From Patescibacteria group bacterium (GTDB lineage: Bacteria > Patescibacteriota > Patescibacteriia > Patescibacteriales > UBA12075), in the NCBI GenBank assembly GCA_018897195.1, contig JAHILH010000001.1, positions 156,565 to 220,564 of the forward strand: a DNA stretch of 64,000 bases. The letters are read 5' to 3'. The notes under the pieces were generated by a model. That model was not told the origin of the DNA. It searched no databases and was given only the letters and a program-made list of their open reading frames with translations. Within the stretch, counting starts at the first letter, position 1, and the number at the start of each line of letters is the position of its first letter. Both the position numbers and the translations under genes were made by a program. Shown here piece after piece: positions 6,530-57,878 of the stretch.

Positions 6530-6646
6530 ATCTTAATTTAAAAAAAGATTTGTATTTAGTAAATTATCTTTATGATAGTTTGCTAAAAAACAGGCTCTTT
6601 TAAAATAAAGTGTGCATTTGCACAAAATCAAAGGAGGAGGTGTGTT

Positions 6647-16172: not shown

Positions 16173-17345
16173 ATGAAAATATTAGGAATACATGTAACCG
16201 ATGACTCCCGCGAGGAGGTTTTGGGGCGGATTGAGGGGTTTTTGGAGTCTGATAGGCAGAATATTGTGGTAACGCCGAATCCGGAGATTATTTTGGCTGC
16301 GCAGGACGATGAGAAGCTTTTTCACATTTTAAACATTGCCAGTTTGTCACTGGCGGATGGGATTGGCTTAAAGTTGATGGGACTATTATTGGGGGAGAAT
16401 GTAGTCCGGATAACAGGGGCTGATTTAGTAGTGGATATTTTGAAAATGGCACAGAGTCGAAAAAGTAATGTTGGAATAATTAATTGGTCAGGCGGACTTT
16501 CGAGTTTTGGAGAAATAAAAAAAACATTAGAAGAAAAATTCGTAGGTATAAAAGTCTTTGTAACTGATATCGCAGAAAAAGATTTTAACAACAAAAATAT
16601 CAGTTTTGTGAGCTTAAGTAATTGTGAAATAATTTTGGCCAATCTGGGAGCTCCTTATCAAGAGAAAATTATCTTTAACAACTTGCCGCAATTTCCCAAG
16701 GCGCGAGTTTTGATTGGTATCGGTGGTGCTCTTGATTTCTTGACTGGTAAAATAGCTCGAGCGCCGTTTATCTTGCGCAAAATTGGCATGGAGTGGTTGT
16801 GGCGCTTAATTAAACAACCGACGCGCATTAAGAGAATTATTAACGCCGTTATAGTTTTCCCATTACGGTTCTTTAAATTTCATTTTATTAATTGTTTTTT
16901 CTATCGGCCCAACGTTGCTTGCTTGCTGTATAAAAAATCAGAATCTGGTTATTCTTTTTTATTAATAAGTCGCAGTGATATTGAACACCATTGGCAAGTA
17001 CCACAAGGAGGCTTGGATGGTTTAAACGCAGAAGAGGCGGCCAAAAAGGAGTTGAGCGAGGAATTGGGAACTGATAAATTTGTCACCAAGGCGATTGTGA
17101 AAAATATTTATCGTTATAAATATGTAGACAAAAAAACCGTCGTTAAACACCGTGGTTATAAGGGGCAAAAGCAAGATTTGTATATTGCAGAATTTATTGG
17201 TAATGATGAGGATATAAAAGTAAAAACTTGGGAGCATGCTGGCTGGCAGTGGGTGAGCGAGAATGAGTTCATTTCTTCACTGCACCAGGATAGGCGAAAG
17301 AGTGGAGAATTGTTTTTGGATAAATTCCAAAAATTGACAAAATAG
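16173..17345 (+). CDS. WecG/TagA/CpsF-family (GT26) glycosyltransferase fused to a NUDIX hydrolase domain
   Basis: The N-terminal 240 aa or so look GT26-like (NIVVTPNPEIIL, ADGIGL, MEWLWRL). The C-terminus has an RppH-like Nudix region HWQVPQGGLDGLNAEEAAKKELSEELG. Confidence 0.8.
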   Translation: MKILGIHVTDDSREEVLGRIEGFLESDRQNIVVTPNPEIILAAQDDEKLFHILNIASLSLADGIGLKLMGLLLGENVVRITGADLVVDILKMAQSRKSNVGIINWSGGLSSFGEIKKTLEEKFVGIKVFVTDIAEKDFNNKNISFVSLSNCEIILANLGAPYQEKIIFNNLPQFPKARVLIGIGGALDFLTGKIARAPFILRKIGMEWLWRLIKQPTRIKRIINAVIVFPLRFFKFHFINCFFYRPNVACLLYKKSESGYSFLLISRSDIEHHWQVPQGGLDGLNAEEAAKKELSEELGTDKFVTKAIVKNIYRYKYVDKKTVVKHRGYKGQKQDLYIAEFIGNDEDIKVKTWEHAGWQWVSENEFISSLHQDRRKSGELFLDKFQKLTK

Positions 17346-29476: not shown

Positions 29477-31390
29477 TTATTTCCTAATTTCAATTTCGAT
29501 TCTTCCTGGTTCGATTAATGCGGGAATCTTGGTAATAAAGGATGGGTAGAATTGAATTTCGTGCCCAGCTAGGTCTAAGTTGCCAGTTTTATCAATGTCG
29601 TTTAGATAGGCATTGACTTGATCTTTATTTAAGCCGATTAATTTCTCTTTGTCAATGACGTTAGAATTATCCTTTAAAGTAACCATGCCCTCAAAAGAAG
29701 CGCCGACGTTGGCGGTGCCGTTCTCGACATTAAAGTTGTTTAGTGAGTAGTTAATATTTTCACTGTCAAAACTAACTAATTCTTTATTATCGGCTAATGA
29801 TTTCATTAATTTATCTTTAGCAATTTCTGCAAATATCTTATTGCTAAAAGCGACAACTACTACTTTGGCTTCCATGCCAATCTGAAATTCGGAGATTTCT
29901 TCACCTACTTTATTATTGACAGTTGTAATGATGGAATTCTCATCTATCTTGTAAATTATCTTATCGTAATTACTGTAGCTGTCATTGACTTCCTTTTTGG
30001 CATTGTTTAATAATTCTTGTTTCAAGTCCTTGACGCCATTCCTAATGTCATCTTCGGAGATACTTTTTTTGACTTTTTGTTGATAGATAGCCGCTTCTGA
30101 ACTTTCAGCATAAATCTTGTCCTGGAGACCTGCCCATAGACCAGGAATGGTGAACTTGGACGCGCCAATCGCCATTTCTGGACTTGAATCATCGGCGTAA
30201 ATCTCAGCCTCAACTGATCCGTTTACGGGAATGTCGACGGTATTTTTTAGTCTAAATAATTTACCATCAGTTGATAATAATCTAGTACTCGCGACTAAAG
30301 GTTGATTTTTGATATAATTATTTACTAGTCTAACCTTGCCAATCACCTCTTTGCCCAAAACCTCTTCGTTTGTGGCAGGATATGTCTTGGAAAAACTAAC
30401 CGCTGTTTCTTTAACAACACCGATCACCTTTTCACCAACAGCCTCATCGACGTTTTGATTCTTTTCGGCATCCAGAACATCAAAAATTGCATTATTGCTA
30501 ATTCTTTCCTGACTAGGTATTAAAACTATCTTAACATGTATAAATGTGAAGTAGAAAACCGCCGCACCAACTGCCATTAATAATAATGCAAAAAAATAAG
30601 CAATTTTTTTATAAATACCAATAGCATGCGATGATAATTTGAAGACATTATTTTCATGCTCAATAACAGGGGTTTCTGGTACTTTTTTGGCATTTTCTGC
30701 GTCTGTCTTTGCGGCATTGGCGGCGGCAATGACCTTTTTTACGGCATCGCTTTCAACATTCCACAATCCATCCTGTTCTTCTGTTGCGCTTTCGATAATT
30801 TTCTCGTCAATTTTAATGGCGGCATCTGGCACTACAACAACAACATCTTTTTTCGCCTCGATTTTATTACTTTCAGCAATAACGGCTTCAACTGGTGATG
30901 TTGATGCGCCGTTGTCTGCGTCATTGCTAGTTTCTGCTGGAGTGGTTGCTGTGATATTTTCCACAGGCTTTTCTGTCCCCAGGGTTTCTGAGGTGGCAAT
31001 TAATTCATCGATATTATTTTGAATTTTACCTTTGATATTGATTTTAATAGCAATTTCCTCATCATCAGAATAACTGTCTTGGTTAATTGGACCATCTGAA
31101 TATAAAGTCTCTGCAGGCTTTTCAGCGCTAATCAATGGTTTAATAATTATTGGTTTTTTGTCTACCTTTTTCGTGCTTGTTTTTTTTACAGTTGATTTCT
31201 TAACCACTTTTTTTTCTTTAACAACTTTATCCTTAGTGGTAGCTATGGCACCCTCAATCTTTTTCGGTCTTCCCGCTTTCTTTTTTACAACAATATTCTC
31301 CGCGTTTACCTGAGTGATTTCTTCTTTTTGATTATCTTTTTTTTCTGCTGTCATAAAAAAATTATTAATTTCGATTGAGGAATCCGCCAC
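29477..31390 (-). CDS. bitopic membrane protein: Lys-rich/AT-hook-like N-terminus, one TM, large C-terminal outside domain
   Basis: 637 aa. KKAGRPKKIEG and KKVVKKSTVKKTSTKKVDKK lie near the N-terminus, followed by an acidic/Thr-rich low-complexity stretch. TM is IAYFFALLLMAVGAAVFYFTF, then about 360 aa. The start codon is uncertain (GTG 31390 or ATG 31354). I vaguely recall similar C-terminal domains annotated as baseplate-J-like in uncultivated lineages. This is unverified. Confidence 0.7.
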   Translation of the reverse strand: MADSSIEINNFFMTAEKKDNQKEEITQVNAENIVVKKKAGRPKKIEGAIATTKDKVVKEKKVVKKSTVKKTSTKKVDKKPIIIKPLISAEKPAETLYSDGPINQDSYSDDEEIAIKINIKGKIQNNIDELIATSETLGTEKPVENITATTPAETSNDADNGASTSPVEAVIAESNKIEAKKDVVVVVPDAAIKIDEKIIESATEEQDGLWNVESDAVKKVIAAANAAKTDAENAKKVPETPVIEHENNVFKLSSHAIGIYKKIAYFFALLLMAVGAAVFYFTFIHVKIVLIPSQERISNNAIFDVLDAEKNQNVDEAVGEKVIGVVKETAVSFSKTYPATNEEVLGKEVIGKVRLVNNYIKNQPLVASTRLLSTDGKLFRLKNTVDIPVNGSVEAEIYADDSSPEMAIGASKFTIPGLWAGLQDKIYAESSEAAIYQQKVKKSISEDDIRNGVKDLKQELLNNAKKEVNDSYSNYDKIIYKIDENSIITTVNNKVGEEISEFQIGMEAKVVVVAFSNKIFAEIAKDKLMKSLADNKELVSFDSENINYSLNNFNVENGTANVGASFEGMVTLKDNSNVIDKEKLIGLNKDQVNAYLNDIDKTGNLDLAGHEIQFYPSFITKIPALIEPGRIEIEIRK

Positions 31391-31504
31391 GGCGGACTAA
31401 CCATGTAAAAAGCTTTTAGCTTTTTTATCCACAAGTTTTAATATATGAATAATATAACAAATTTTTGGGTTTATGTCCAATTCGCGACTTTTTTCCTGTA
31501 AAAC

Positions 31505-31534
31505 AAAAAGATCATCCGTTGCGGATGATCTTTT
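31505..31534. terminator. terminator downstream of the tRNA-Glu pair
   Basis: GATCATCCG (31510-31518) pairs with CGGATGATC (31522-31530). It is flanked by A-runs and T-runs. Confidence 0.65.
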
Positions 31535-31542
31535 AATGCTTG

Positions 31543-31614
31543 TGATCCCTAGGAGAATCGAACTCCTGTTATCAGGATGAGAACCTGGTGTCCTAACCAT
31601 TAGACGAAGGGACC
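31543..31614 (-). tRNA. tRNA-Glu (anticodon CUC), no encoded CCA
   Basis: The reverse complement GGTCCCTTCGTCTAATGGTTAGGACACCAGGTTCTCATCCTGATAACAGGAGTTCGATTCTCCTAGGGATCA folds as a cloverleaf. Anticodon loop is TTCTCAT. T-arm is AGGAG-TTCGATT-CTCCT. Confidence 0.9.
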
Positions 31615-31895: not shown

Positions 31896-32723
31896 TTAAA
31901 TCCGAAAAAATATTCGCGCATTTCTAGTAGTTGTTTCCTCTATCGAATCAATACTTAAATTTTTAATCTCGGCAATTCTTTTGGCGACATAGGATACCAG
32001 GGCTGGTTCGTTGCGGCTGCCACGGAATGGTTCGGGGGTCATGTATGGGCAATCGGTTTCGATCATGTATTTATCTTTGGGAATTTTGCGGATGAGGTCG
32101 TCCCATTGTTTGCTAAATGTAATTAACCCAGTGAATGAAATAATAATACCGATGCCGAAATATTTCCAAGCGAGATCTTCATCTCCGGAAAAACAATGCA
32201 TGACTGCCCAGGGCCTATCTTTGGGAATTAGTTGGCGGTTTTCGCGGCGGAATTCATCAAGTAATTGGAGCATATCATCGTGGGCTTGGCGACAATGAAT
32301 AATGGCTGGCAAATCTAAACGTCTAGCTAGTAGTAATTGTTGATAAAAAACTTTTTTCTGTGTTTCTTTAATCTTGCTGACATCCTGGGTATTGTCGATA
32401 TGATAATAATCCAAGCCAATCTCCCCCACTGCGACCACTTTTTCAAACTTGGATAATTTTTCGTAAACGTCGTAATTGTATTCCTCGCCCGCGGTTGTAT
32501 AATCGTTTTCTTGATGTGCGTGTAGGTGAATTGGATGTAGGCCAACAGCGGCGTAAACACCTTTTTCGTATTTATTGGCATACTCCAATGCACGCTTAGA
32601 AGTTTTGTAATCAGCACCAACCACAATCTGCCAAGTCTTTTCAGACAAGGAGTTGCGGATAACTTCATCAGCGTCATCGCGGAAGTTTTTAAAATTTACG
32701 TGGGAGTGAGTATCGATGAACAT
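31896..32723 (-). CDS. tatD: TatD-family metal-dependent hydrolase/DNase
   Basis: Motifs FIDTHSHV, GEIGLDY, IHCR, HCFSG and ETDCPY. Confidence 0.9.
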   Translation of the reverse strand: MFIDTHSHVNFKNFRDDADEVIRNSLSEKTWQIVVGADYKTSKRALEYANKYEKGVYAAVGLHPIHLHAHQENDYTTAGEEYNYDVYEKLSKFEKVVAVGEIGLDYYHIDNTQDVSKIKETQKKVFYQQLLLARRLDLPAIIHCRQAHDDMLQLLDEFRRENRQLIPKDRPWAVMHCFSGDEDLAWKYFGIGIIISFTGLITFSKQWDDLIRKIPKDKYMIETDCPYMTPEPFRGSRNEPALVSYVAKRIAEIKNLSIDSIEETTTRNARIFFRI

Positions 32724-32761
32724 ATAGTGCGAATTTTTAATTTTGAATTTTTAATTTTAAA

Positions 32762-32777
32762 TAAGGATATATCCTTA
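32762..32777. promoter_or_regulatory. perfect 16-bp palindrome in the divergent tatD / small-peptide control region
   Basis: TAAGGATATATCCTTA equals its own reverse complement. It lies 39 nt from the tatD start and 51 nt upstream of the peptide gene -35 box. Confidence 0.55.
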
Positions 32778-32827
32778 TCCTCTTTTAATAGTATACCATT
32801 TTTTCCGGTTTATCAACTTTATCTTTT

Positions 32828-32856
32828 TTGACTTAAATGCTGATATTTTGTATAAT
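32828..32856 (+). promoter_or_regulatory. promoter of the Cys-rich peptide gene
   Basis: TTGACT (32828-32833), 17-nt spacer, TATAAT (32851-32856). Confidence 0.7.
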
Positions 32857-32920
32857 ATTATCGTCGTCGTTCTTTTCGGAATATATTTCCAAAACCTTCA
32901 ATCAAAAAAAGGAGGCTATC

Positions 32921-33079
32921 ATGATTGGAGAATCACAGAAAAAAATCTTCAATCCTCGTATCGAGATGTTTTCGGCATTCAGTCAACCATTTGCCACAAC
33001 CTCAACCAGCGTCATTGACACGTCATTGGAAAAAGCAGCTGCTTGTTGCGCATGCACGGCTTGCACTGCCTGTCGCTAA
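32921..33079 (+). CDS. 52-aa peptide with C-terminal CCACTACTACR (candidate RiPP precursor or metal-binding peptide)
   Basis: AAGGAGG (32909-32915) lies 5 nt before ATG 32921. Translation: MIGESQKKIFNPRIEMFSAFSQPFATTSTSVIDTSLEKAAACCACTACTACR. It has its own promoter and terminator. The track start at 32837 lies inside the promoter. Confidence 0.55.
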   Translation: MIGESQKKIFNPRIEMFSAFSQPFATTSTSVIDTSLEKAAACCACTACTACR

Positions 33080-33094
33080 CCAAAAAACCTCAAC

Positions 33095-33127
33095 AAAGAT
33101 CTCTGCACGCAGGGATCTTTCTTTTAT
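33095..33127 (+). terminator. hairpin plus U-tract immediately after the peptide ORF
   Basis: AGATCTCTGC (33097-33106) pairs with GCAGGGATCT (33109-33118) with one G-U pair. ttcttttat follows. The next ATG is at 33130. Confidence 0.55.
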
Positions 33128-33129
33128 AT

Positions 33130-34530
33130 ATGAAAAACACTATACAAATAAAAAACGCGACTGCGAATAATTTGAAAAATGTCAGTGTGGCTATCCCCTT
33201 GAATAAATTGGTAGTTGTCGCCGGGAAAAGTGGCAGTGGTAAATCTTCTTTGATTTACGATGTGTTGTTTAAGGCATCGCAAGGAGAGAGGGTTGCGGCC
33301 GTGATTGGTAAATTACCAAAGACTTTTGCGATATCACAAAAGGTTAAGTCTGATGGCAAGATGAGCTTGGGTGAAACTAATATGGGTAAATTGCGGGAGA
33401 TTTTAAAAGTTATCAAAAAGGATGAATTGCTGATAATTGATGAGCCTTGCGCAGGGATGAACAAGGTTGACCGCGAAAGTGTTTTGAAATTATTACGAGA
33501 CAGTTTAAAGAAAGGTATTTCAATTATTGTAGTTGAGCACAACAAAGATATCATTGCCAATGCTGATTACGTTATCGAATTTGGCCCTGAGGCGGGCGCT
33601 AAGGGCGGTGAAGTTATTTTTCAGGGCTCGATTGCTGATTATAAAAAAGCCAAGACGCCGACTTCTATTTATGTTTTTTCTAAAAAAGCAGAATTAGTGG
33701 ATTATCAGAGAAGTCCGAATGCCAAGGCAAAATTGATGCAAAAAAAATCTTTGATAATTAAGGGTATAAACCAAAATAATATCAAGAATTATAATTTAAA
33801 TATTCCTCTTGGTAGTTTGGTTTGTATGACTGGCGGGATTGGTACGGGCAAGACAACTTTATTGTCGGTTGCCTATGGTTCTCTGTTCAAGGGCAAGGAT
33901 GCCTGGAAGATGAAGCAAGGTTTTAAATCCATTGAGGGCAAGGCGAATGTGAGAAGATCTTATTTTGTTGACCAGACTATTTTGAGTCCGATTATCACCA
34001 GTACCCCGGCCACCTATCTTGGTATTTGGGATTCAATTCGAGATGTCTTCGGTGGCTTGCCTGAGAGTAAAAAATTGAAATTGAATAAATCGCATTTCAG
34101 TTTGAATACGCAATTTGGTAAAGAAAAAATTCACGTTTTGGAAAAAGTAAAATATAAAAATAAGACAATTTTTGATGTCTTGAAAATGACCATTGATGAA
34201 GCGACTATTTTGTTTGATGATAATTCTTTGGTAAAAAGAAAATTAGGTTTTTTGCAAGAAGTTGGTTTGGGCTATCTGGCCTTGGGACAAAAATCAGGCA
34301 CCCTGTCTGGCGGTGAGGCACAACGAGTGCGCTTGGCGAAGATTTTGTCCAAAAAATTAGGTGATCGTTGTATTTATATTCTAGACATCCCATCGCGAGG
34401 CTTGCATTTGAGCGACCTTCCTACTTTGACGAAAATATTTCAAAAAATTATTGATAAGAATAATACCGTTTTGATTGCCGAGAACAGAGAAGAAATTATT
34501 AACAATTGTGATGCGGTTATAAATCTATAA
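33130..34530 (+). CDS. minimal UvrA-like double-ABC ATPase (466 aa; no zinc modules or UvrB-binding domain)
   Basis: IKNATANNLKNVSVAIPLNKLVVVAGKSGSGKSSLIYDVLF is the UvrA N-terminal motif. The second module has GGIGTGKTT, PATYLGIW and LSGGEAQRVRLA. I chose ATG 33130 because the track's upstream extension crosses the terminator hairpin. Confidence 0.85.
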   Translation: MKNTIQIKNATANNLKNVSVAIPLNKLVVVAGKSGSGKSSLIYDVLFKASQGERVAAVIGKLPKTFAISQKVKSDGKMSLGETNMGKLREILKVIKKDELLIIDEPCAGMNKVDRESVLKLLRDSLKKGISIIVVEHNKDIIANADYVIEFGPEAGAKGGEVIFQGSIADYKKAKTPTSIYVFSKKAELVDYQRSPNAKAKLMQKKSLIIKGINQNNIKNYNLNIPLGSLVCMTGGIGTGKTTLLSVAYGSLFKGKDAWKMKQGFKSIEGKANVRRSYFVDQTILSPIITSTPATYLGIWDSIRDVFGGLPESKKLKLNKSHFSLNTQFGKEKIHVLEKVKYKNKTIFDVLKMTIDEATILFDDNSLVKRKLGFLQEVGLGYLALGQKSGTLSGGEAQRVRLAKILSKKLGDRCIYILDIPSRGLHLSDLPTLTKIFQKIIDKNNTVLIAENREEIINNCDAVINL

Positions 34531-40010: not shown

Positions 40011-41747
40011 ATGTTTTCAAAAAAGCAATTAAAAAATATTCTTTTGAGTGCGGAAATTATTTCCGCTGATGACTTTGAGAAGTTATCAGCGGAGGCAATT
40101 AGCCTTGGTAAGCCACTTGAGAATTTATTAGTCGAAAAGAAAATTACTTCTTCTTTGGCTATATGTGAAAATGCGGCCAGCTATTACAAGCTGCCCTTTA
40201 TTGATTTAAAAAACCAAAATATTCGTAAAGATGTTTTATTTTCAATTCCAGAACCAATTGCTTCTGCGCACGAAATTATTGCCTTTGACTCTGATGGCAA
40301 GGATTTAAAACTAGCCTTGATAAATCCGGAAAATATCCAGATTATTGAATTTATTAAGAAAAAAACTGGTCTAAATCCAGTGCTTTATGTTACCACCTCT
40401 GACAGTATTCATGACACTTTAAAGCAATATCACAAAAGTCTAAAGGCGGAATTCGATTATTTGTCCGATGAACAAAAAGAGGATCTTTCAGAATTGGATA
40501 TAAACAAAGATTTGAAGAAATTGGCTCAAGATGTGCCCGTGGTTCGTATCGTGGATACTTTATTGGAGTACTCCATTATTGAGGGCGCGAGTGATATTCA
40601 CATTGAGCCAGAAGAAAAAGACGTATTAGTTCGCTATCGTATCGATGGTATTTTGAAAAATGTAATGGTTTTACCCAAGAATGTTCAATCTGGCATTGTG
40701 GCGCGTATCAAAATTTTGGCGAATTTAAAAGTAGACGAACATCGCCTACCACAAGATGGTCGTTTTAAGATTTCCAACGCTGAACATAAGATGGCTTTTC
40801 GTGTTTCGATTTTACCAACCTTTGATGGCGAAAAAATTGTAATGCGTTTGTTAAATGAAAAAGGACAGATTTTAACCTTGGAACAGCTTGGTTTTCAGCG
40901 TAGCGCCTTAGAGGCTTTGAAGCGTAATATTACTAAGCCACACGGTGTGCTTTTGGTGACCGGACCAACGGGGTCAGGAAAAACCACTACCCTATATACA
41001 ATCTTAAGTATTCTTAATCAACCAGAGGTTAATATTTCTACCATTGAGGACCCAATTGAGTATCGTATGCCCCATGTGAACCAGTCACAGGTTAATGCCA
41101 AGATTGGTTACACCTTTGCTCAGGGCTTGCGTGCTTTTTTGCGGCAAGATCCGAATATTATTATGGTGGGAGAAATCCGTGATGAAGAAACGGCTGAAAT
41201 TGCGACGCATGCGGCTATGACTGGTCATATGGTGTTATCTACTATTCATACCAACAGCGCTGCGGCCACTTTGCCTCGTTTAACTGAAATGGGTATCCCC
41301 TCTTTTTTGATTGCAACGACGGCCAATGCTATTATTGCGCAACGTTTGGTGCGAAAAATATGTCCAAATTGTATTCAAAGTTTTAATCTGGATAAAGAAG
41401 TTATTGATAAACTCGAAAAACAATTAAATATCGGAAGTATTTTAACGACACTGGAACAGGAGAAGCAAATTTTGAGCGCTAAAAAGGGGTTATCGCAATT
41501 GCTGTTTTATCGCGGTAAGGGTTGTAAGCAATGTAATAATACTGGCTATAAGGGGCGTATTGGTATTTATGAAATATTAGAAAACACTCCGGATATATCA
41601 TCATTAATTGTTAAAAATGCCAGTGCTCATGAGATTCATCAAAAGGCCATCGAGCAAGGCATGTTGACGATTGTTGAAGATGGTTTTATTAAGGCGAAAA
41701 ACGGCGTGACAACAATTGAAGAGGTGTTGCGCGTGACAAAGGAATAG
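40011..41747 (+). CDS. pilB: type IV pilus assembly ATPase (GspE/PilB family)
   Basis: N-terminal GspE-N-like domain. Walker A GPTGSGKTTT, GEIRDEETA, and tetracysteine CPNC...CKQC. Confidence 0.92.
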   Translation: MFSKKQLKNILLSAEIISADDFEKLSAEAISLGKPLENLLVEKKITSSLAICENAASYYKLPFIDLKNQNIRKDVLFSIPEPIASAHEIIAFDSDGKDLKLALINPENIQIIEFIKKKTGLNPVLYVTTSDSIHDTLKQYHKSLKAEFDYLSDEQKEDLSELDINKDLKKLAQDVPVVRIVDTLLEYSIIEGASDIHIEPEEKDVLVRYRIDGILKNVMVLPKNVQSGIVARIKILANLKVDEHRLPQDGRFKISNAEHKMAFRVSILPTFDGEKIVMRLLNEKGQILTLEQLGFQRSALEALKRNITKPHGVLLVTGPTGSGKTTTLYTILSILNQPEVNISTIEDPIEYRMPHVNQSQVNAKIGYTFAQGLRAFLRQDPNIIMVGEIRDEETAEIATHAAMTGHMVLSTIHTNSAAATLPRLTEMGIPSFLIATTANAIIAQRLVRKICPNCIQSFNLDKEVIDKLEKQLNIGSILTTLEQEKQILSAKKGLSQLLFYRGKGCKQCNNTGYKGRIGIYEILENTPDISSLIVKNASAHEIHQKAIEQGMLTIVEDGFIKAKNGVTTIEEVLRVTKE

Positions 41748-41777
41748 ATTTTTAAAAATAATTAATAAATAAAAACT

Positions 41778-42914
41778 ATGGTAGTTAATTTTAGTTCGCA
41801 GGACTATGGCGCAAATGATGTCAAAAAAGAAGAGGTGCCTATAATGGATAAAATTAATAATTTTCTTCTGACTCTGACTCCAATCGCACTAAAAGAAAAA
41901 TTATTTTTTGTGCAACACTTGGGATTGATGCTTAAGTCCGGCATTTCTCTTGCGCGTGCGCTTAAGACTTTAGCTGACCAATCCGAGAATAAACATTTTA
42001 ATCAAATTTTAACTGATGTGGCTAGCCGAGTTGAAAAAGGCTCAAGTTTTGCTGAATCCTTAGAGGATTATCGTAAAGTTTTTGGTGATCTTTTTTTGAG
42101 TATGATCGACGCCGGAGAATTGTCAGGTAAACTAGAGGAGGTGCTTAGACAACTTTTTGTGCAGATGAAAAAAGAGCATCAATTAGTTTCTAAGGTGAAA
42201 GGGGCCATGACGTATCCGGCAGTTATCCTATTTGCGATGTTCGGTATCGGTGCTTTTATGTTAATCGTGGTGGTTCCAAAAATTACAGCCATGTTTGATG
42301 AGTTACATGCTGAATTGCCACTAGCCACAAAAATTTTGATTGGGGCCAGTGATGCTATTAGAAATAATGGCATAATGGTTGTGATTGGATTGGGAATTTT
42401 TATTACAGCTTGGGTCAAGATATTAAAAACCTATAAAGGAAGATACATTCTTCAGACAATCTTGTTGCGGGCACCGGTTTTTGGCACAATTATCAAAAAA
42501 ATTAATCTCGCGCGTTTCGCGAGAAATATTAGTTCTCTTTTGAAGACTGATATTATGATTGTAAAATGCTTCCAAATCACTGCCAACGTTCTGGGAAATT
42601 TACATTATAAGGCGGCCTTGAATGATATGTCGCAAGTAATCAAGCAGGGCGGTAAATTAAATGAAGCTGTTAAGGCCTATCCCCATCTTTTTACTCCAGT
42701 AGTTGTGCAAATGATTGCCATTGGCGAAGAGACTGGTGAGCTTGATAATATTTTAATGGAATTAGCTGAGTTTTACGAAGATGAAGTTGATCAGATTATG
42801 GAAAATTTACCAACTATTATTGAGCCCTTATTAATTCTTGCACTTGGCCTAGGCGTTGGTGGCGTGGCCGTGGCTATCGTGATGCCAATGTTTGCCATTT
42901 CATCGGCAATATAA
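41778..42914 (+). CDS. pilC: type IV pilus platform protein (GspF/PilC family)
   Basis: Two T2SS-F repeats (SGISLARAL..., GEETGELD) and three TM segments. An alternative start is ATG 41844. Confidence 0.9.
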   Translation: MVVNFSSQDYGANDVKKEEVPIMDKINNFLLTLTPIALKEKLFFVQHLGLMLKSGISLARALKTLADQSENKHFNQILTDVASRVEKGSSFAESLEDYRKVFGDLFLSMIDAGELSGKLEEVLRQLFVQMKKEHQLVSKVKGAMTYPAVILFAMFGIGAFMLIVVVPKITAMFDELHAELPLATKILIGASDAIRNNGIMVVIGLGIFITAWVKILKTYKGRYILQTILLRAPVFGTIIKKINLARFARNISSLLKTDIMIVKCFQITANVLGNLHYKAALNDMSQVIKQGGKLNEAVKAYPHLFTPVVVQMIAIGEETGELDNILMELAEFYEDEVDQIMENLPTIIEPLLILALGLGVGGVAVAIVMPMFAISSAI

Positions 42915-42919
42915 AATTA

Positions 42920-45900
42920 ATGAAATTATCCCCCCAAAAAAATCAAAAAGGCTTTACATTAATTGAGGTTACAGTCTCTTTGGCTATAATCGCTGTTTTG
43001 ATTTTGGGAGTTTACAGCTTGGTAATCTTGTCTCTTAGAATAACGGCTGACAACAAAAACTATGTATCAGCGATTGAGATTGCCAATCAAAAAATGGAGC
43101 AGATTCGCAATATGCCCTATGATAATGTCGGAACTATTGACAGCAGTATTGTCTCTGGCACAATTCCTCAAATAGTTACCATTGAAAGAGGTGGAGTTTT
43201 TACGGTTACAACAAACGTCACCATGCCAAACGATCCATACGATGATATTGCTGGAGTAGATACCATCCCTAATGACTATAAGCAGGCCACGGTTAAAGTT
43301 GGTTGGGAAAGTAGTTATGGTCCAAAAAGTATATCTGTGTTTTCTAAAATAGTTTCCAAGACCAAAGAAGTGGCCGCTGGCTATGGCTTGCTAGAGCTTC
43401 ATTCTGTTGATTCTAATGGATTACCCGTTCCTAATGCTAATGTCTATATAGATAATGATATTTTAGTTCCTGCCATGCATGAACATACGACAGTTACTGA
43501 TGCAAACGGCATATTAAACATGGCGCTTCTTAAGTCATTTCAAGGTTATAAGATTACGGTTAGCAAGGCTGGTTATAGCACTGATTATTCTCTCGACCCC
43601 GCTTCCGGTTTAACACCAATTCATCTCTCAATTACTGAGGGTAATAAAACAGCTGAAAGTTTTTCAATAGATAAGCTAGCTACACTTATTGTTAAAACAT
43701 ATTCTGATAATATTCCTGCAAATTGGATGGTCAATAAGGCGACGTCGACAAGTAGTAAGTCAAAAACAGCTATTTCAAAAGATGATTCCGGAAATATTTA
43801 TTTCATTTGGCAAGATGTAGTTGATGCGACAAACGCAGGTGTTTTTATTCAAAAATATAACTCTGCCAAGACCAGACAATGGCTAAATGATGTTAGAGTG
43901 GAAACCTCAAGTAATGAAACTAATCCTAGTATTGCCACAAGCAAGAACGGCACTTCTTATGTTGTTTGGCAGGACAGTTCAATAGCTTTAAAATCATTGG
44001 CAAAAGCTCCAGTTGAATCAAGTCTAGCCAGTAATGATGACTTGACTAGCCCCAGCAGTGATAAGGTTCTAAACGTGAATAAAATTGTTAAAAGTTCCTT
44101 GCTGAGACCGCTAAGTAATGTTGGCAGACTTGCTGAATTGTATTTTAATAAAATAAAAGTTTTTTTATTTCATGATATTAGAAATAATTCACATATTTTT
44201 GTTGCTAAAATTAAAAAATATTTTAGCAATAACAGTGCTGTTGCCGCCGGTACAGTTACAATTGTACAGACAAAAATAGGCGCAAACGTAAACAATTCAC
44301 CAACCTTGTCAGCTACCTTTGATAGTGCCCCACTTAGCGGTAATGTTATTATTGCCATTGCAAGTCATCGGCATAGTTTCACTTCATTTATTACGCCAGC
44401 TGGTTTTACAAAATCAGTTTATAGCGATGTCTCAGCTAGTCTGGATGCTGGTATCTGGCATAAAGTTGCGGGCGCTAGCGAATCAAAAACAGTCTCTATT
44501 ACAAATTCTGGCGATATAAATGGCGGTGTCTTGATGCTTATGGAGGTAAGTGGACTCGAAACCGCTAGCTTGCTTGATGTTGTCTCAATGAATTATCAAG
44601 GTGACTTGTCTAAAACTGGCAACACCGACTTGACTGCCACTTCAACAAATAACAGTTTTGGCGTCGCGGCAGTGTCTTTTGGTGACGACGCTTTTACGGC
44701 ACCAACTTCGGCAAATTGGCAATCATCATCATCTAATGTGTATACTCAGAAAATGTGGGATGATTGGAATTCTGGAAGCAAAGGGTCCTTGAGTGTGGCG
44801 ACGATAAATATAAATGCTGGTGTTCCACAAAAGGCTACGCTTGGGCCCTTGCTAGGTGGTAGCAATACGTATAGAAATAGCGTCTTGGCAATTTTTAAAA
44901 TTAAAAATGACACCTCTGTTAGTGCAATAAATTCTCAAACAGCCTCTATCACCTTCCCTGCCACAAACCAATATATTGGTGGTTCTTTTGCAATTACGGC
45001 AAGTTCTACAAACTCTGTCAGTAGTATAAAAATAAGTGAAGATGGAACTGTTGATGCGCAAAATAATTTAGAAAATATTCACTTGTATTATGATATAGAC
45101 TCTAGTTTTCCATATGACTGCGTTAGTGAGTCGTACGCTGGTACCGATTTGCAATTTGGTACTAATACTGGTTTTGATAGTTACGATGGTGTGGCAATAT
45201 TTACAAAAGTTGGTGGTGTGACAATCGATACCACACATAGTCTTTGTGTCTATACAGTTCTAGATGTTAAAAGTTCGTCTAATAAAAATGACACCGTTGA
45301 AATTAAAATAAGTAATCCGGCAACAGATGTTATAATTAGCGCTGGTCTTATGACTCCTGGATCTACTGTCGCCATTGCGGGAACAACCATTCTTTTAAAA
45401 CCAGCTGAATTGCAGCAGATTCATTATAGATTTCGCAATGATGATGGTGATGAAAGCACTGCTTCTTGGAGTAAGACCGAAGATAATAATTTGATAACCA
45501 AAATAGGGGCTCCGGTTAGACTGAGATTTGCCGTTACCAATGCAGGCAGCTTTGATTCCGCTGCTACTAGTTATCAGATTCAGTACGGCGAAAAAGATAC
45601 TACCTGTGCTGCAATTTCAGTCTGGAGTTCATTGCCGGCAAAATGGAAAATGTACAACTCGAGCAATATTAACGATGGTGATGCAACGACTGATTCTACT
45701 GGTATTACCAATGAAAATACTAATTTTAAGGCTAGTCAAATAAAAGATACTGGTAGTCAAACTTCAGCACTGACACTCACCTCTTCTGATTTTACCGAAA
45801 TTGAATATTCTCTTGAGGCTGATGGTAGTGCATCTGAAAAAACTTATTGCTTCCGCTTGACCAATGCTGGCGCAACCACCCAGTTTAACTATATTGAATA

Positions 45901-47020
45901 TCCCGAGATTAGCATTGTCGGCGATGATAATATTTATATAAAAAGTTTTAATAATGACGGGAGTGAACACTGGGGCGTGAAAAGAGTTCATTTGGATTCG
46001 TCTAGTGTTAATCAGCAAAATCCGCAAATTGCTATCACGGAAAATTTTGGCACGGCCACAACTACGGTTATTTGGGAAGATAGTCGCAATGGCAATATTG
46101 ATATTTACGCGCAAAGCTTTAATGAGGGCGGCAACCGCTTATGGAGTAGTGATTTGAGAATCACTAGTTCTTCAACAAATGAAATAAATCCCGTGATTGA
46201 TATCGACGCAGAAGACAATATTTATATCAGCTGGGAGGAACAAGGCGATATTTATTTACAAAAATTTGATATTGATGGTAATAAGTTGTGGCTTGAGCCT
46301 ATTAATATCACTAATTCAGGTGTTGCAGATTTTCGACCAAGAATTAGCCATGCTTCAACAACTGCCCTTTTATCCTGGACTGCATCAGAATCATCTATTT
46401 ATAATACTTATTTAGCCAAATTTGATAGCACAGGTAGCTTAATTTGGAAAGAACGGGCAAATGTAGAGTCTAGTGAAAAAAACCAATTCTACCCGACTAT
46501 TGCTAGTAATGATTCTAATGTTTATGTAACATGGACTGATGATCGTAATGGTAATAACAACATCTATGCTCAAAAATTTAATCTCAGCGGTGTTGCAGAG
46601 TGGACCAATGATCAAAAAATAACCGACGATATAGACTCGTCAGATCAAAATTCACCTGCTATTATCATAAGTTCAGATAATAAAATTTTTAGTGCTTGGC
46701 ACGATGAAAGAAGTTTATCCAAGGAGATCTATGCAACCGAAATTAGCGAACCAGGAACACCAACGGTGGTGGCCAATGTCCCCTTGGTTATAACCGGCTC
46801 AAGATTGATATACAAAGATCCATTGCAGTATAAATATAGTCAAACGCATGCTACTGACGGTGGTGGTGACTTGTCTTTGCAGTTGGAGTGGGATGCATCA
46901 TATCAAATAGTTGCAAGCAGCACCTTGACAGGGCTAATTGTGACTGAATGCCGCCCCCTTAACTGCCCTATTAGTATTAGCGCTGATGAAATAAAAACAA
47001 TTGAAATTTATGTTAAATAA
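42920..47020 (+). CDS. giant prepilin-like protein (1,366 aa) with CarboxypepD_reg-like segment and propeller-type repeats
   Basis: MKLSPQKNQKG/FTLIEVTVSLAIIAVLILGVYSL is a class III signal. The repeat signature recurs: VIWEDSRNGNIDIYAQSF, VTWTDDRNGNNNIYAQKF, SAWHDERSLSKEIYATEI. Confidence 0.85.
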   Translation: MKLSPQKNQKGFTLIEVTVSLAIIAVLILGVYSLVILSLRITADNKNYVSAIEIANQKMEQIRNMPYDNVGTIDSSIVSGTIPQIVTIERGGVFTVTTNVTMPNDPYDDIAGVDTIPNDYKQATVKVGWESSYGPKSISVFSKIVSKTKEVAAGYGLLELHSVDSNGLPVPNANVYIDNDILVPAMHEHTTVTDANGILNMALLKSFQGYKITVSKAGYSTDYSLDPASGLTPIHLSITEGNKTAESFSIDKLATLIVKTYSDNIPANWMVNKATSTSSKSKTAISKDDSGNIYFIWQDVVDATNAGVFIQKYNSAKTRQWLNDVRVETSSNETNPSIATSKNGTSYVVWQDSSIALKSLAKAPVESSLASNDDLTSPSSDKVLNVNKIVKSSLLRPLSNVGRLAELYFNKIKVFLFHDIRNNSHIFVAKIKKYFSNNSAVAAGTVTIVQTKIGANVNNSPTLSATFDSAPLSGNVIIAIASHRHSFTSFITPAGFTKSVYSDVSASLDAGIWHKVAGASESKTVSITNSGDINGGVLMLMEVSGLETASLLDVVSMNYQGDLSKTGNTDLTATSTNNSFGVAAVSFGDDAFTAPTSANWQSSSSNVYTQKMWDDWNSGSKGSLSVATININAGVPQKATLGPLLGGSNTYRNSVLAIFKIKNDTSVSAINSQTASITFPATNQYIGGSFAITASSTNSVSSIKISEDGTVDAQNNLENIHLYYDIDSSFPYDCVSESYAGTDLQFGTNTGFDSYDGVAIFTKVGGVTIDTTHSLCVYTVLDVKSSSNKNDTVEIKISNPATDVIISAGLMTPGSTVAIAGTTILLKPAELQQIHYRFRNDDGDESTASWSKTEDNNLITKIGAPVRLRFAVTNAGSFDSAATSYQIQYGEKDTTCAAISVWSSLPAKWKMYNSSNINDGDATTDSTGITNENTNFKASQIKDTGSQTSALTLTSSDFTEIEYSLEADGSASEKTYCFRLTNAGATTQFNYIEYPEISIVGDDNIYIKSFNNDGSEHWGVKRVHLDSSSVNQQNPQIAITENFGTATTTVIWEDSRNGNIDIYAQSFNEGGNRLWSSDLRITSSSTNEINPVIDIDAEDNIYISWEEQGDIYLQKFDIDGNKLWLEPINITNSGVADFRPRISHASTTALLSWTASESSIYNTYLAKFDSTGSLIWKERANVESSEKNQFYPTIASNDSNVYVTWTDDRNGNNNIYAQKFNLSGVAEWTNDQKITDDIDSSDQNSPAIIISSDNKIFSAWHDERSLSKEIYATEISEPGTPTVVANVPLVITGSRLIYKDPLQYKYSQTHATDGGGDLSLQLEWDASYQIVASSTLTGLIVTECRPLNCPISISADEIKTIEIYVK

Positions 47021-47075
47021 AATTTTAAAAAAGCCATTGTTTTTTTATATGGCTGGGCATTCATTTTCCTCAACT

Positions 47076-47651
47076 ATGAAAAATAAAACCGGTTTCACTA
47101 TGATTGAATTAATTGTCGTGATTGCAGTTATGGGTGTCATCTCAACCATGGTTTTAAATTTTACCGTCATGGGTCTGAGAGCTTCTCGTTTTGAGGCTGA
47201 ACAAGCTGAAGCGGTCAAACAAGCCAGAGATGCAATGAACATTATGAAGACTGAAATTAGAGGCGCAAATAATTCCGCCCATGGTGATTACCCGATTTCT
47301 GTAATTACTAATCAAGAGTTTGCTTTTTTCTCCGACATCGACAAGGATGATGTGTATGAAAAAGTTAGATACTACCTCGACGGCTTGGAGTTAAAAAAAG
47401 CTGTCATTGAGCCCAATATCTCTAATTTGTATACAGACCCACCAGTCATTACGGTTATTGCTAATTACGTCAATAATCAAACCGAAAATGTCTTTAACTA
47501 CTATACCTCTAATTATACTATTGCTGGGGATATTAACGAGGTTAGATTAATTAATATGAATTTAAAAATCAACGTTACTCCGGAAATATCACCGGCTGAT
47601 ATTTATGTCGAAACTGATGTTGCTCTCCGTAATCTTAAATCAAATTTATAA
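47076..47651 (+). CDS. minor (pseudo)pilin
   Basis: MKNKTG/FTMIELIVVIAVMGVISTMVL is a class III signal. I chose ATG 47076 over the track start at 47001, which overlaps the previous gene. Confidence 0.75.
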   Translation: MKNKTGFTMIELIVVIAVMGVISTMVLNFTVMGLRASRFEAEQAEAVKQARDAMNIMKTEIRGANNSAHGDYPISVITNQEFAFFSDIDKDDVYEKVRYYLDGLELKKAVIEPNISNLYTDPPVITVIANYVNNQTENVFNYYTSNYTIAGDINEVRLINMNLKINVTPEISPADIYVETDVALRNLKSNL

Positions 47652-47655
47652 GTTA

Positions 47656-49245
47656 ATGAATATGCAGAAACAAAAAATAAAACAATTCATGAATAACAGC
47701 AGAGGCTCGATGTTAATCCTTGCCTTGGTTTTGACCGGTCTTTTTATGGCCATGACTATGGGCGCCATCGGCCTAGCTCTTTTACAACAAAAATTAAATA
47801 TGATCAAAATTGCCAGCAATCAAGCCGTTCATATTGCTGAGGCTGGTGTTAATTATTATCGCTGGGTGCTATATCATGATCCAGAAGAGTATTGCAATAA
47901 AGAGGCTTGTCGTGCCTCGACCACTCCATATGGGCCATACGCATATACGGACGCTAGTGGCAGCATTACAGGTCATTATGAGTTATATATTACCCCACCA
48001 GCTATTAATGCCTCAACTATCGTGACAGTTAAATCAATAGGGTGGGAAGATGGCCACCCAAGCGTTAAAAGAGTCATTGAGGTTAAACTAGGAAAACCCT
48101 CTTGGTCTAATTTTGCAACTTTATCTAATAATGATATTACATTTGGTGCTGATACTGAGGTTTGGGGGCCTATTCATTCAAATGGCGGTGTTCGATTTGA
48201 TGGAATAGCTCATAATATTATTACCTCTTCCAAGGATTATTATACCGACCCAGATCATGCCAGTAGTGATGTTTTTGCGTTTGGAGTGCATACTCACAAT
48301 GGTGCTGGTAATGGTACTTATAATACAACCGAAGAAGGAAATCCCGGACTAAGTCTTCCTGCGCCAGATCAAAGTGCAACTTTTCTTTCTGGTCGCGAAT
48401 TCCCCGTCCCAATCGTGAGCTTTAGTTTATTAGATAACTATATAAGTGAGACATATATTAAAGCTTCTTCAAGCGGAATGATTATTGATCCTAGAAGTGC
48501 TGGGATAGCTGATCCTGAATCAGAGCCAACTCTTCGTAATTGCATTAGCTCTACCTGCGACGAGGGATTCCATATTACACTAAAAACAAATAATACTTTT
48601 GAAATTAGGGATGTCTCCGCTGTTTTCCCGGATTGGAGTAATAATCCCAGTGCAGACTCTAAAAGCCTTAGTATAAAAACTGAAGGAGCTGCTAAAACTT
48701 TTAGCATTCCGGAGAACGGAATAATTTTTGTCAAAAATCATGTCTGGATTGATGGAAAAATAAACGGAAGCAAGGTGAACGTTTTAGCATTTTTCGAACC
48801 GTTTACGGGCACTGTTAACACTGCGAGTATAATCACTAATAAGGATTTACTTTATACAAATTATGACGGCACAGACTCCATTGGACTTATCGCTCAAGGC
48901 GATATTGGCCCTGGTTTGTATAGCGAAGGTGCTTTGTCGGGAACGGAGGATCAAATGGAATTAAGAATTGATGCAGCTATGATTGCTAAGACTGGTCGAG
49001 TCGGTCGTTTGTATTACAAGCACAGTAGCGGCGATGAGTATCCCAAGAGACAAACGATAACTATTTATGGGTCTTTGGCAACAAACCAGCGCTATGGTTT
49101 TAGTTATTCTTGTGGCACCAGTGATCAATGGTGTTCTGGATATAAAATTAGGAATATAATTTATGATAATAATCTTACGCTGGATCCCCCGGCGAATTTT
49201 CCTACCACGGGAGAGTATACTTTTGTTTCTTGGAAAGAAGATTAA
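47656..49245 (+). CDS. large PilX-N-terminal-like pilus-associated protein
   Basis: NNSRGSMLILALVLTGLFMAMTMGAIGL resembles the PilX N-terminal hydrophobic segment. About 490 aa of unknown fold follow. The start is placed after the previous stop. Confidence 0.6.
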   Translation: MNMQKQKIKQFMNNSRGSMLILALVLTGLFMAMTMGAIGLALLQQKLNMIKIASNQAVHIAEAGVNYYRWVLYHDPEEYCNKEACRASTTPYGPYAYTDASGSITGHYELYITPPAINASTIVTVKSIGWEDGHPSVKRVIEVKLGKPSWSNFATLSNNDITFGADTEVWGPIHSNGGVRFDGIAHNIITSSKDYYTDPDHASSDVFAFGVHTHNGAGNGTYNTTEEGNPGLSLPAPDQSATFLSGREFPVPIVSFSLLDNYISETYIKASSSGMIIDPRSAGIADPESEPTLRNCISSTCDEGFHITLKTNNTFEIRDVSAVFPDWSNNPSADSKSLSIKTEGAAKTFSIPENGIIFVKNHVWIDGKINGSKVNVLAFFEPFTGTVNTASIITNKDLLYTNYDGTDSIGLIAQGDIGPGLYSEGALSGTEDQMELRIDAAMIAKTGRVGRLYYKHSSGDEYPKRQTITIYGSLATNQRYGFSYSCGTSDQWCSGYKIRNIIYDNNLTLDPPANFPTTGEYTFVSWKED

Positions 49246-49286
49246 AATGTGTTACAATAAAGTTATAAAATATTTAATACTAAAGT

Positions 49287-50435: not shown

Positions 50436-50436
50436 A

Positions 50437-50970
50437 ATGATTACATTAAACATTATCTCGCCAGAATTAAAAAATGAGATCAAATTAAAGTATATTTATC
50501 GGATTATTGGAAAGTCTTTTATCTTGATTGGTGTTTTTTTGGGATTCTATGCGATTATTTTAGTCTCTTCAAGAATTGTTCTCAGTTCTTACTTGAGTGA
50601 AGTTAGTCAGATGAACAGCACTACCAACGAGTCAACTAACAATACGGTTAAGGCGGTTAATGATGTAAATAAAAAATTAAAAGAAGTCGCCGTTATTCAA
50701 AAAGATGAAATAAGTTGGTTAAATCTCTTGGAGTTAATCTCTCAAAATACTTCTAAAGATATCAAATATAATAAAATATCAATGGATAGAAATAATGGGC
50801 TTAGCCTCACTGGGCAATCAAAAACCAGGGATGGCCTGATTAAGATAAAAAAATTCCTCGATGAGTCCGCCTTCCTTTCCGACGTCGACTTCCCTATTAG
50901 CAATTTACTGGAAAAAGAGAATATAAATTTTAATATTAGCGCCAAAATTAATAATTATGAATTTAAATAA
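50437..50970 (+). CDS. pilN: PilN-like bitopic protein
   Basis: 177 aa with a single N-terminal TM. It is start/stop-coupled to pilM. The call rests on position and topology. Confidence 0.55.
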   Translation: MITLNIISPELKNEIKLKYIYRIIGKSFILIGVFLGFYAIILVSSRIVLSSYLSEVSQMNSTTNESTNNTVKAVNDVNKKLKEVAVIQKDEISWLNLLELISQNTSKDIKYNKISMDRNNGLSLTGQSKTRDGLIKIKKFLDESAFLSDVDFPISNLLEKENINFNISAKINNYEFK

Positions 50971-57824: not shown

Positions 57825-57878
57825 AACATCTTTATTATAACACATTAAAAAAGTATTTGGCAATGTTGTTTTTGTTAT

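Follow-up and report, generated by a model that had tools for sequence, protein, structure and literature searches.

Peptides that end in a short Ala-Cys repeat are known from the vicinity of radical enzymes. The ACGX-repeat and the Cys-every-fifth peptides, both predicted by comparative genomics, are small, carry such a repeat at the C-terminus and are encoded beside an enzyme that combines a radical S-adenosylmethionine (rSAM) with a SPASM domain. UvrA-like proteins, for their part, occur among the genes for natural products: DrrC, Ecm16 and MtrX are self-resistance genes in clusters for DNA-binding drugs (PMC10413001). Here, a stretch of 64,000 nucleotides (nt) from a Patescibacteria group bacterium (contig JAHILH010000001.1, positions 156,565 to 220,564) is described, the whole of which is called the window. 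It contains a gene for a Cys-rich peptide of 52 amino acids (aa), directly ahead of a gene for a UvrA-like ATPase. The peptide gene is real and strongly conserved, and its product is the predicted precursor of a previously undescribed family of Cys-rich modified peptides. Members of this family head complete rSAM gene clusters in various bacteria, and in the Candidate Phyla Radiation (CPR), to which the present genome belongs, only the peptide and a short form of the ATPase seem to be kept. The elements of this unit are arranged as follows.

32828-32856, forward strand: sigma-70-type promoter of the peptide/ATPase unit, TTGACT (32828-32833), 17 nt, TATAAT (32851-32856), 11/12 matches
32909-32915, forward strand: Shine-Dalgarno sequence AAGGAGG, 5 nt ahead of the ATG at 32921
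32921-33079, forward strand: peptide gene, ATG 32921, stop codon TAA at 33077-33079, 52-aa precursor-type product MIGESQKKIFNPRIEMFSAFSQPFATTSTSVIDTSLEKAAACCACTACTACR
Leader, aa 1-40 of the peptide: family motif K7-F24, KKIFNPRIEMFSAFSQPF, at nt 32939-32992
Core, A41-R52 of the peptide: ACCACTACTACR, equal to (A-C-x)4, at nt 33041-33076
33095-33129, forward strand: stem-loop (33095-33120) and interrupted T-tract, a partial terminator or dosage hairpin between the peptide and ATPase genes
33130-34530, forward strand: gene for the UvrA-like ATPase with twin nucleotide-binding domains (NBDs), 466 aa, minimal form, with its ATG at 33130 directly after the T-tract

Promoter and ribosome-binding site are present just as a preliminary description of this DNA had reported them. 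The same description had credited the peptide gene with a terminator of its own. The hairpin stands up well, with a stem of 11 bp, a 4-nt loop, a dG of -13.2 kcal/mol and a z of -4.71 (0 of 200 shuffles fold equally well); since the T-tract behind it (CTTTTATAT) is interrupted, however, termination is to be regarded as moderate and not as strong. The ATPase start at 33130 lacks a Shine-Dalgarno sequence of its own. In the open reading frame (ORF) list, an 80-aa in-frame version of the peptide starts at ATG 32837; this ATG falls between the -35 and -10 boxes and is therefore not the start. Between the TatD start and the peptide promoter, the segment 32724-32790 holds direct repeats rich in AT (aatttttaattttgaatttttaatttta) together with a palindrome of 14 nt (aaggatatatcctt), possibly as an operator or the region of a divergent promoter.

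The core has a Cys at each third position of ACCACTACTACR, giving a CCxCxxCxxC thiol cluster. A ferredoxin-type [4Fe-4S] pattern is made up of CxxCxxC and a fourth Cys, and the peptide offers C45-x2-C48-x2-C51 in addition to C42/C43, a spacing which we liken to the ferredoxin-type CIACGAC of clostridia. The product may also be a small metal- or redox-binding peptide, an alternative named in the preliminary description. An exact look-up of the 52-aa product gave no record, and the curated models gave no match, either in Pfam (E up to 0.01) or in NCBIfam (E up to 10). Rfam has no meaningful match over 32000-34000 of the window. Relatives were absent from the IMG/VR scan, the INPHARED phages and the PLSDB plasmids, where the low-complexity filter of BLAST may mask the core.

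Among 5.8 billion proteins, at least 36 homologues of the peptide were found (E 3e-26 to 7e-10), the named ones coming from Candidatus Parcubacteria, Falkowbacteria and Magasanikbacteria. A scan of one genome per species yielded 14 related loci and the JGI metagenomes a further 31, 45 in all, while an exhaustive hidden Markov model (HMM) search of 1.84 billion representatives returned 39 family representatives. The peptide is also encoded in the complete or nearly complete CPR genomes CP011215.1 (Campbellbacteria GW2011_OD1_34_28) and CAWFIX010000003.1 (Uhrbacteria). Residues F10, N11, P12, E15, F20, P23, F24, A41-C48 (except T46) and R52 are invariant among the homologues, whose consensus reads KKxFNPRIExFSAFxKPF...VV..LEKAAACCACTACTACR, with the leader motif KKxFNPRIExFSAFxxPF. 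In 18 distinct CPR loci, all 12 core residues are identical, and every synonymous Ala, Cys, Thr and Arg codon and all three stop codons are in use. As the core amino acids are fixed while the synonymous codons vary, the constraint acts on the protein and neither on DNA nor on RNA; it is old. These homologues, related loci and the purifying selection on the protein leave no room for a chance ORF, and the earlier impression of a genuine gene that looks expressed is borne out.

The constraint differs between the two forms of the system. The leader has FNPR[IV]E in 18 of the 19 minimal loci and is variable in the full-cluster loci; the core is fixed in the CPR, and its repeat number and x residue vary elsewhere. 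This tighter constraint on leader and core in the CPR suggests a somewhat different and stricter reader of the peptide sequence. The expression signals are shared more widely. Of 24 homologous loci inspected, most have AGGAGG or AAGGA at 20 nt or less from the start, and L019 and L021, which are close relatives, also have TTGACT-17-TATAAT. Most family loci show a stable hairpin after the stop codon whichever gene comes next, including those where this is an rSAM gene. Between the window and L021, the stem differs by one compensatory change from C-G to T-A and by one change from T.G to C-G. The stem-loop after the stop codon is presumably the usual precursor/enzyme dosage device of operons for peptides that are made by the ribosome and modified post-translationally (RiPPs).

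In 20 distinct non-CPR loci, the peptide gene is the first of a cluster and is followed by two rSAM/SPASM genes, a PqqD gene and a gene for a B12-type rSAM enzyme (B12-rSAM). The full content of these clusters comprises two rSAM/SPASM enzymes, a PqqD-like leader-binding protein, a protein of 450-585 aa without family match and between one and three B12-rSAMs; an M19 dipeptidase is often added, and a dedicated UvrA-like ATPase is never missing. Among full clusters whose flank extends +5 to +7.7 kb, 12/12 have a gene for a 570-800-aa UvrA-like protein. By title or name, full clusters belong to Clostridium, Desulfospira, Desulfosporosinus, Spirochaetia, Desulfovibrio sp. A2, Syntrophomonadaceae, Lachnospiraceae and an alphaproteobacterium. 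In Clostridium sp. 19966 (L018; NZ_JACTOJ010000004.1), peptide, rSAM/SPASM, rSAM/SPASM and PqqD genes are succeeded by those for a 687-aa radical-SAM protein (B12-type by homology), a SAM methyltransferase, a 572-aa UvrA-like ATPase and a third rSAM/SPASM enzyme. Desulfospira (L012) and the metagenome contigs L050, L052, L053 and L060 begin with the peptide, two rSAM/SPASM enzymes, PqqD and the 450-585-aa protein and continue with a B12-rSAM, a UvrA-like ATPase of 730-760 aa, a second B12-rSAM and Peptidase_M19. In the Desulfospira cluster, a 634-aa pentapeptide-repeat protein (L012 13770-15674) is encoded between the B12-rSAM and the UvrA-like gene; pentapeptide-repeat proteins protect gyrase in other toxin clusters.

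Throughout the family the core is of the form (A-C-x)n with n = 3-6, as in ACCACTACTACR, ACCACTACSACSACK, ACCACTACTACTACG, ACTACTACTACK, ACSACSACK and CAPCTACSACVACNACVACR. The presence of a leader, a PqqD-type protein and SPASM enzymes makes this a putative RiPP precursor family, and at family level this reading holds. The preliminary description, which saw a RiPP-type precursor with a leader and a Cys/Thr/Ala core, was thus on the right track, the homologues heading clusters with rSAM/SPASM and PqqD genes. The chemistries that it had considered (azol(in)e, chalkophore and lanthipeptide) are unlikely, since the family enzymes are of the rSAM/SPASM and B12-rSAM types instead of YcaO, MNIO or Lan. 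No cluster protein reaches a curated NCBIfam cut-off: the best has 140 bits against 500, and the only matches are sub-threshold ones to generic rSAM, B12 and UvrA models. The 450-585-aa protein has no match in Pfam, NCBIfam, PADLOC or the PDB profiles.

Known anti-phage systems adjoin the full clusters in six independent loci, and the neighbours are ordinary in three others. The systems beside full clusters are the following.

L031 306-5483 and L041 2576-7852: RADAR, RdrA/RdrB
L046 3-3343: Shango, SngB/SngC
L050 1224-8440 and L053 3615-5990: type I restriction-modification
L060 3949-7694 and 20040-21008: BREX PglZ/BrxL and a SIR2 protein

Judged from these gene neighbourhoods, the context of these full clusters is that of a defence island or a mobile island.

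The CPR form is much smaller. In 18 distinct CPR loci, the peptide gene has a short UvrA-like gene (445-512 aa) at a distance of no more than 2 kb, in four arrangements.

ATPase on the same strand, downstream of the peptide (6 loci): window, L019, L021, L007, L025, L058
ATPase divergent from the peptide (8 loci): L003, L008, L009, L016, L026, L028, L034, L038
ATPase convergent with the peptide (2 loci): L024, L037
ATPase on the same strand, upstream of the peptide (2 loci): L001, L006

Together with every full cluster that has sufficient flank, these loci confirm the UvrA-like neighbour as a real and conserved partner, and both the peptide and the pairing, for which the preliminary description had proposed a search in related genomes, are conserved. 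The short ATPase itself forms at least 120 clusters; the best 120 are all of 357-495 aa, and the named ones are nearly all CPR. Exporters of the ATP-binding cassette (ABC) type, of about 600 aa and with a transmembrane domain fused to an NBD (TMD-NBD), recur in CPR loci as neighbours of the short UvrA-like gene, whether or not the peptide is there, namely at these positions.

L001 8114-9922: one exporter
L006 1714-~3550 and 5369-7144: two exporters
L009 8240-10060: one exporter
L057 7472-9280: one exporter
L059 7467-9251: one exporter

At L006 1714-4653, the exporter ORF and the UvrA-like ORF are joined through a stretch of N in the assembled sequence, which results in an artefactual 979-aa 'protein'. 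Peptide or ATPase sequences of CPR type also turn up in bins titled Bdellovibrionales, Gammaproteobacteria or Nanoarchaeota (L007, L010; names P0220, P0233); L010 hardly differs from the Patescibacteria locus L009, and the non-CPR labels are probably due to mis-binning. No sensor or regulator gene is conserved near the CPR loci.

The window ATPase corresponds to a UvrA reduced to its core. Its alignment with T. maritima UvrA starts at residue 2, opposite the N-terminus MKNTIQIKNATANNLKN, and covers only residues 2-51, 488-715 and 752-865. Signature domain I is without its inserts (Zn1, UvrB-binding domain, Zn2 and insertion domain), and also missing is the Zn3 hairpin, equivalent to T. maritima 716-751, and there is no CxxC...CxxC motif. 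NBD-II is degenerate, with ILDIP as Walker B and AEN in the H-loop, so that the catalytic Glu and the H-loop His are replaced. The protein scores 343 bits against the UvrA model TIGR00630, the cut-off of which is 729.8. Its AlphaFold2 (AF2) model has a predicted local distance difference test (pLDDT) of 92.8 and a predicted template-modelling score (pTM) of 0.89, and its best PDB matches are 6n9l, titled 'T. maritima UvrA d117-399' (template-modelling score, TM, 0.86), and 3ux8 (TM 0.88). According to the alignment, the equivalent of B. stearothermophilus K680 is kept as R276 and that of R691 is lost (P287); both residues are taken by us to be DNA contacts of UvrA. On the ATPases, PADLOC reports generic ABC similarity only (mad3, 114 bits; mad8).

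The degenerate second site is a property of the whole group. In canonical UvrA, DEP and H are found in both NBDs. In 31/31 non-redundant peptide-linked ATPases (22 short, 9 cluster-type), Walker B of NBD-II is D[I/T/V/N/S]P instead of DEP, and in all 24 of the 31 that were caught by the pattern search, the H-loop has Asn for His. In NBD-I, DEP is kept wherever Walker B was caught. The cluster-type ATPases keep one CxxC...CxxC zinc finger, and the short ones have none. Pairwise scores of short against cluster-type ATPases and others are all about 245-315 bits and do not by themselves separate lineages; it is the shared derived motif states of NBD-II that place the short CPR and cluster-type ATPases in one lineage, and they indicate common descent with a degenerate second ATP site.

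The enzymes of the full cluster were sought throughout the CPR material. The absence of an adjacent maturase, already remarked upon in the preliminary description, extends to the whole window: homologues of rSAM/SPASM, PqqD, B12-rSAM and the 450-585-aa protein are missing from its 64 kb, none of its ORFs of at least 150 aa has a CxxxCxxC motif, and Pfam finds only housekeeping genes among 40 of its ORFs. With local HMMs of the four cluster families, the NrdG activase of L003 is the only match in the window and 11 CPR loci taken together. In a context table of 50 loci, the CPR-type loci are without cluster enzymes, and no maturase lies within 6-10 kb in the 18 distinct CPR loci. Among the rSAM/SPASM homologue clusters, 0/105 carry a CPR name, the named ones being from Desulfosporosinus, Desulfovibrio, Alphaproteobacteria, Syntrophomonadaceae, Lachnospiraceae and Rhodocaloribacter. 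The 14 loci of GTDB species representatives divide evenly into seven full clusters, all with non-CPR titles, and seven loci without maturases, all of CPR-type sequence (five labelled CPR and two probably mis-binned). The missing linkage, the contrast in names and the GTDB division are indirect evidence that weighs against maturases elsewhere in the CPR genome.

On this basis, an explanation can be proposed in which the CPR genome would keep two genes of the system, the precursor and a stripped-down ATPase of 466 aa. A single consensus promoter would drive both; the stem-loop would end most transcripts after the peptide, and a fraction would read through to the ATPase gene, so that the peptide would be made at a high and the ATPase at a low level. 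The ATPase would be an obligatory partner that handles, protects or counteracts the peptide. A role in handling or counteracting it is suggested because the ATPase is the only component besides the peptide that is common to all versions of the system. In our best reading, the peptide works in this genome without rSAM tailoring, its CCxCxxCxxC thiol cluster being what is active and the ATPase acting upon it or together with it; we regard this as about as likely as not. It could further be imagined that the peptide and the UvrA-type ATPase are the functional core of an unrecognised system, of which the rSAM-tailored form resides in anti-phage islands of anaerobes. The CPR precursor would then be exapted as an untailored mini-protein with a metal- or Fe-S-binding Cys cluster, loaded, remodelled or used by a UvrA-derived ATPase that no longer senses DNA damage. 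This wider proposal is tentative and, taken as a whole, somewhat unlikely.

Several observations weigh against an untailored peptide acting with its ATPase. A physical contact between the two is putative, and the role of an unmodified peptide is hypothetical. The invariant leader is what a PqqD-type recognition protein would be predicted to demand, yet none was found in the window or the CPR loci. The window represents 64 kb of a contig of about 565 kb, so that maturases may still be encoded elsewhere. The short ATPase is commoner than the peptide, which is adjacent in only one of four newly sampled short-ATPase loci; an ATPase that is often without peptide fits an immunity gene able to stand alone. 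In one Uhrbacteria contig (1.32 Mb), the peptide (L005 7929-9075) and the ATPase with its exporter (L057 4651-9280) are about 790 kb apart. Both adjoin an IS200-type Y1 transposase, which suggests that they were separated by transposition. Finally, a phage-like region with portal and capsid genes (L004 7271-10150, the same region in L033) has the peptide and no UvrA-like gene nearby; there, the peptide starts at the base following the stop codon of a 909-aa AAA ATPase.

A rival explanation is a RiPP cluster that has been split, with rSAM/SPASM, PqqD and B12-rSAM genes elsewhere in the genome, a peptide tailored as in Clostridia and Desulfobacterota and an ATPase for self-protection. In the CPR, the conservation of leader and core equals or exceeds that in cluster-bearing organisms, which would be expected with the same enzymes still reading them; most of the contig lies beyond the window, and the Uhrbacteria genome demonstrates that genes of the system can separate. 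On the other hand, the peptide-ATPase linkage is kept in four arrangements over 18 CPR loci that have no maturase within 6-10 kb, and CPR names, absent from the 105 rSAM homologue clusters, are borne by almost all named peptide and short-ATPase matches. The two to four Fe-S/cobalamin radical enzymes that a full cluster needs would also be unusual for genomes so reduced, and a split cluster appears unlikely to us. A resistance island, in which the short ATPase, often with a TMD-NBD exporter, would guard CPR cells from the mature peptide of their neighbours (Clostridia, Desulfobacterota or Spirochaetes) and the precursor would be kept as a decoy, sensor or inducer, is improbable. It has precedents in the UvrA-like self-resistance proteins DrrC, Ecm16 and MtrX (PMC10413001), and it agrees with the exporters of about 600 aa that flank the short ATPase (L001, L006, L009, L057, L059) and recall DrrAB with DrrC, with an ATPase that lacks the peptide in three of the four reverse-sampled loci, as orphan immunity genes do, and with the pentapeptide-repeat protein of the Desulfospira cluster. 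However, a decoy or relic would not hold 12 core residues and a leader motif fixed through saturated synonymous change, the removal of a drug from DNA is doubtful for an ATPase without Zn3 finger, insertion domain and one of two DNA-contact residues, and a conserved sensor or regulator gene is missing from the neighbourhood.

The six full clusters that abut RADAR, Shango, type I restriction-modification or BREX with SIR2 bring to mind an anti-phage defence module, with the UvrA-type ATPase as a sensor of foreign or damaged DNA, the Cys-rich peptide, tailored or not, as the effector and the CPR pair as the minimal form. ABC-type ATPases are common defence sensors, which also speaks for such a module. 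Nevertheless, it is quite improbable, as the CPR loci including the window lie among housekeeping genes (TatD, MurC, MurG, FtsW), three full clusters have ordinary neighbours, and other mobile cargo gathers in defence islands as well; PADLOC recognises a generic ABC ATPase only (mad3, 114 bits), and a phage-like region harbours one of the peptide copies. The preliminary description had also envisaged a leader peptide that controls read-through into the ATPase gene. Such a cis-acting upstream ORF, the translation of which would respond to the supply of Cys-, Thr- and Ala-tRNA and set the read-through of the hairpin, suits the hairpin and T-tract that in the window separate it from an ATPase start without Shine-Dalgarno sequence. 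Yet the ATPase gene is divergent or convergent, and hence on the opposite strand, in 10 of the 18 loci, and rSAM genes rather than ATPase genes follow the homologues in 20 loci; selection acts on amino acids over the whole 45-aa sequence, in leader and core and beyond the Cys and Thr codons, and no alternative anti-terminator pairing was seen. Transcription attenuation was therefore rejected as a general explanation, and it can hardly be right for the window. We retain the reading of an untailored peptide that acts together with its ATPase.

The family is of interest for several reasons. It is a new and widely distributed radical-SAM RiPP family, with an (A-C-x)n core, two rSAM/SPASM enzymes, B12-rSAMs, an M19 dipeptidase and an unmatched protein, for which Clostridium sp. 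19966 and Desulfovibrio sp. A2 are cultured entry points. A UvrA-derived ATPase with one degenerate ATP site seems to be tied to a ribosomal peptide, which raises the question of whether UvrA-like 'resistance' proteins can have non-DNA clients. The CPR or Patescibacteria are thought to be nearly devoid of secondary metabolism, and many of their lineages keep the precursor under extreme purifying selection without the enzymes. Either a split radical-SAM pathway is hidden in reduced genomes, or a RiPP precursor has taken on an independent role. The neighbourhood of RADAR, Shango, BREX and restriction-modification genes makes the full cluster a candidate for peptide-based anti-phage defence.

On the other strand, the neighbours of the unit are TatD (31896-32723) and MurC-MurG-FtsW-MraY. 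Just upstream of the peptide gene, between BipA and TatD, are two reverse-strand ORFs without Pfam match, of 637 aa (29477-31390) and 67 aa (31397-31600). The rest of the window is typical CPR housekeeping, with aminoacyl-tRNA synthetases, GyrB, ClpB, a type IV pilus cluster and glycosyltransferases. The pilus cluster (40011-51583; PilB-like T2SSE, PilC-like T2SSF, PilM, PilO) also encodes a giant pilin-like protein of 1366 aa, which bears a pilin methylation motif at its N-terminus. Two fusions are encoded on the forward strand, one of 887 aa between an ADP-forming acyl-CoA synthetase (CoA-binding, ATP-grasp) and a C-terminal GNAT acetyltransferase (8148-10811), the other between a NUDIX hydrolase domain and a WecG/TagA-type glycosyltransferase (16173-17345). 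By eye, two reverse-strand ORFs resemble an [FeFe]-hydrogenase with 2Fe-2S and 4Fe-4S motifs (542 aa, 61566-63194) and a secreted subtilisin-like S8 peptidase (717 aa, 55710-57863).

In the searchable literature, CCACTACTACR or CCACTACSAC occurs in no paper, all matches to ACCACTACTAC are DNA primers, and nothing links UvrA with rSAM RiPPs or with the CPR. The two-gene CPR form is without a described counterpart in the libraries searched, and the family is without a curated model. The closest described peptides are the sactipeptides (subtilosin/AlbA) and ranthipeptides (SCIFF/thermocellin CteB), in which the precursor is likewise short, its leader conserved and its C-terminal core rich in Cys; as with these, the homologues precede rSAM/SPASM and PqqD-like genes, and a hairpin follows the precursor gene. 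The family differs from them by its strict A-C-x triplet core and by its B12-rSAMs, M19 dipeptidase, unmatched protein and UvrA-like ATPase. The window differs further in having none of the enzymes, the combination of rSAM/SPASM enzyme and RiPP recognition element (RRE) being absent from its 64 kb and from the 18 CPR loci. The peptide matches neither SCIFF nor the other curated RiPP precursor models of NCBIfam and Pfam. The ACGX-repeat system is distinct as well: the family rSAMs have 61 and 41 bits with rSAM_ACGX TIGR04340, the cut-off of which is 400, and the period of the repeat is 3, and not 4 or 5 as in the ACGX-repeat and Cys-every-fifth peptides.

For the ATPase, the class II UvrA-like resistance ATPases (DrrC, Ecm16, MtrX) are comparable in being UvrA paralogues without the UvrB-binding domain; the cluster-type relative is likewise situated inside a natural-product cluster, and ABC exporters are sometimes nearby. 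In contrast to these, the window ATPase has no insertion domain and no Zn module either, the second of its ATP sites is degenerate, it scores 214 bits with Ecm16 and 310 with canonical UvrA, and the product with which it is associated is a ribosomal peptide instead of a DNA intercalator. Structurally, the truncated UvrA 6n9l and the 670-residue chain of 3ux8 come closest (TM of the AF2 model 0.86-0.88). Unlike these, the window protein is devoid of the Zn3 hairpin and of the catalytic Glu and H-loop His of NBD-II; it is a natural counterpart of the UvrA twin-NBD core and widespread in the CPR (at least 120 clusters).

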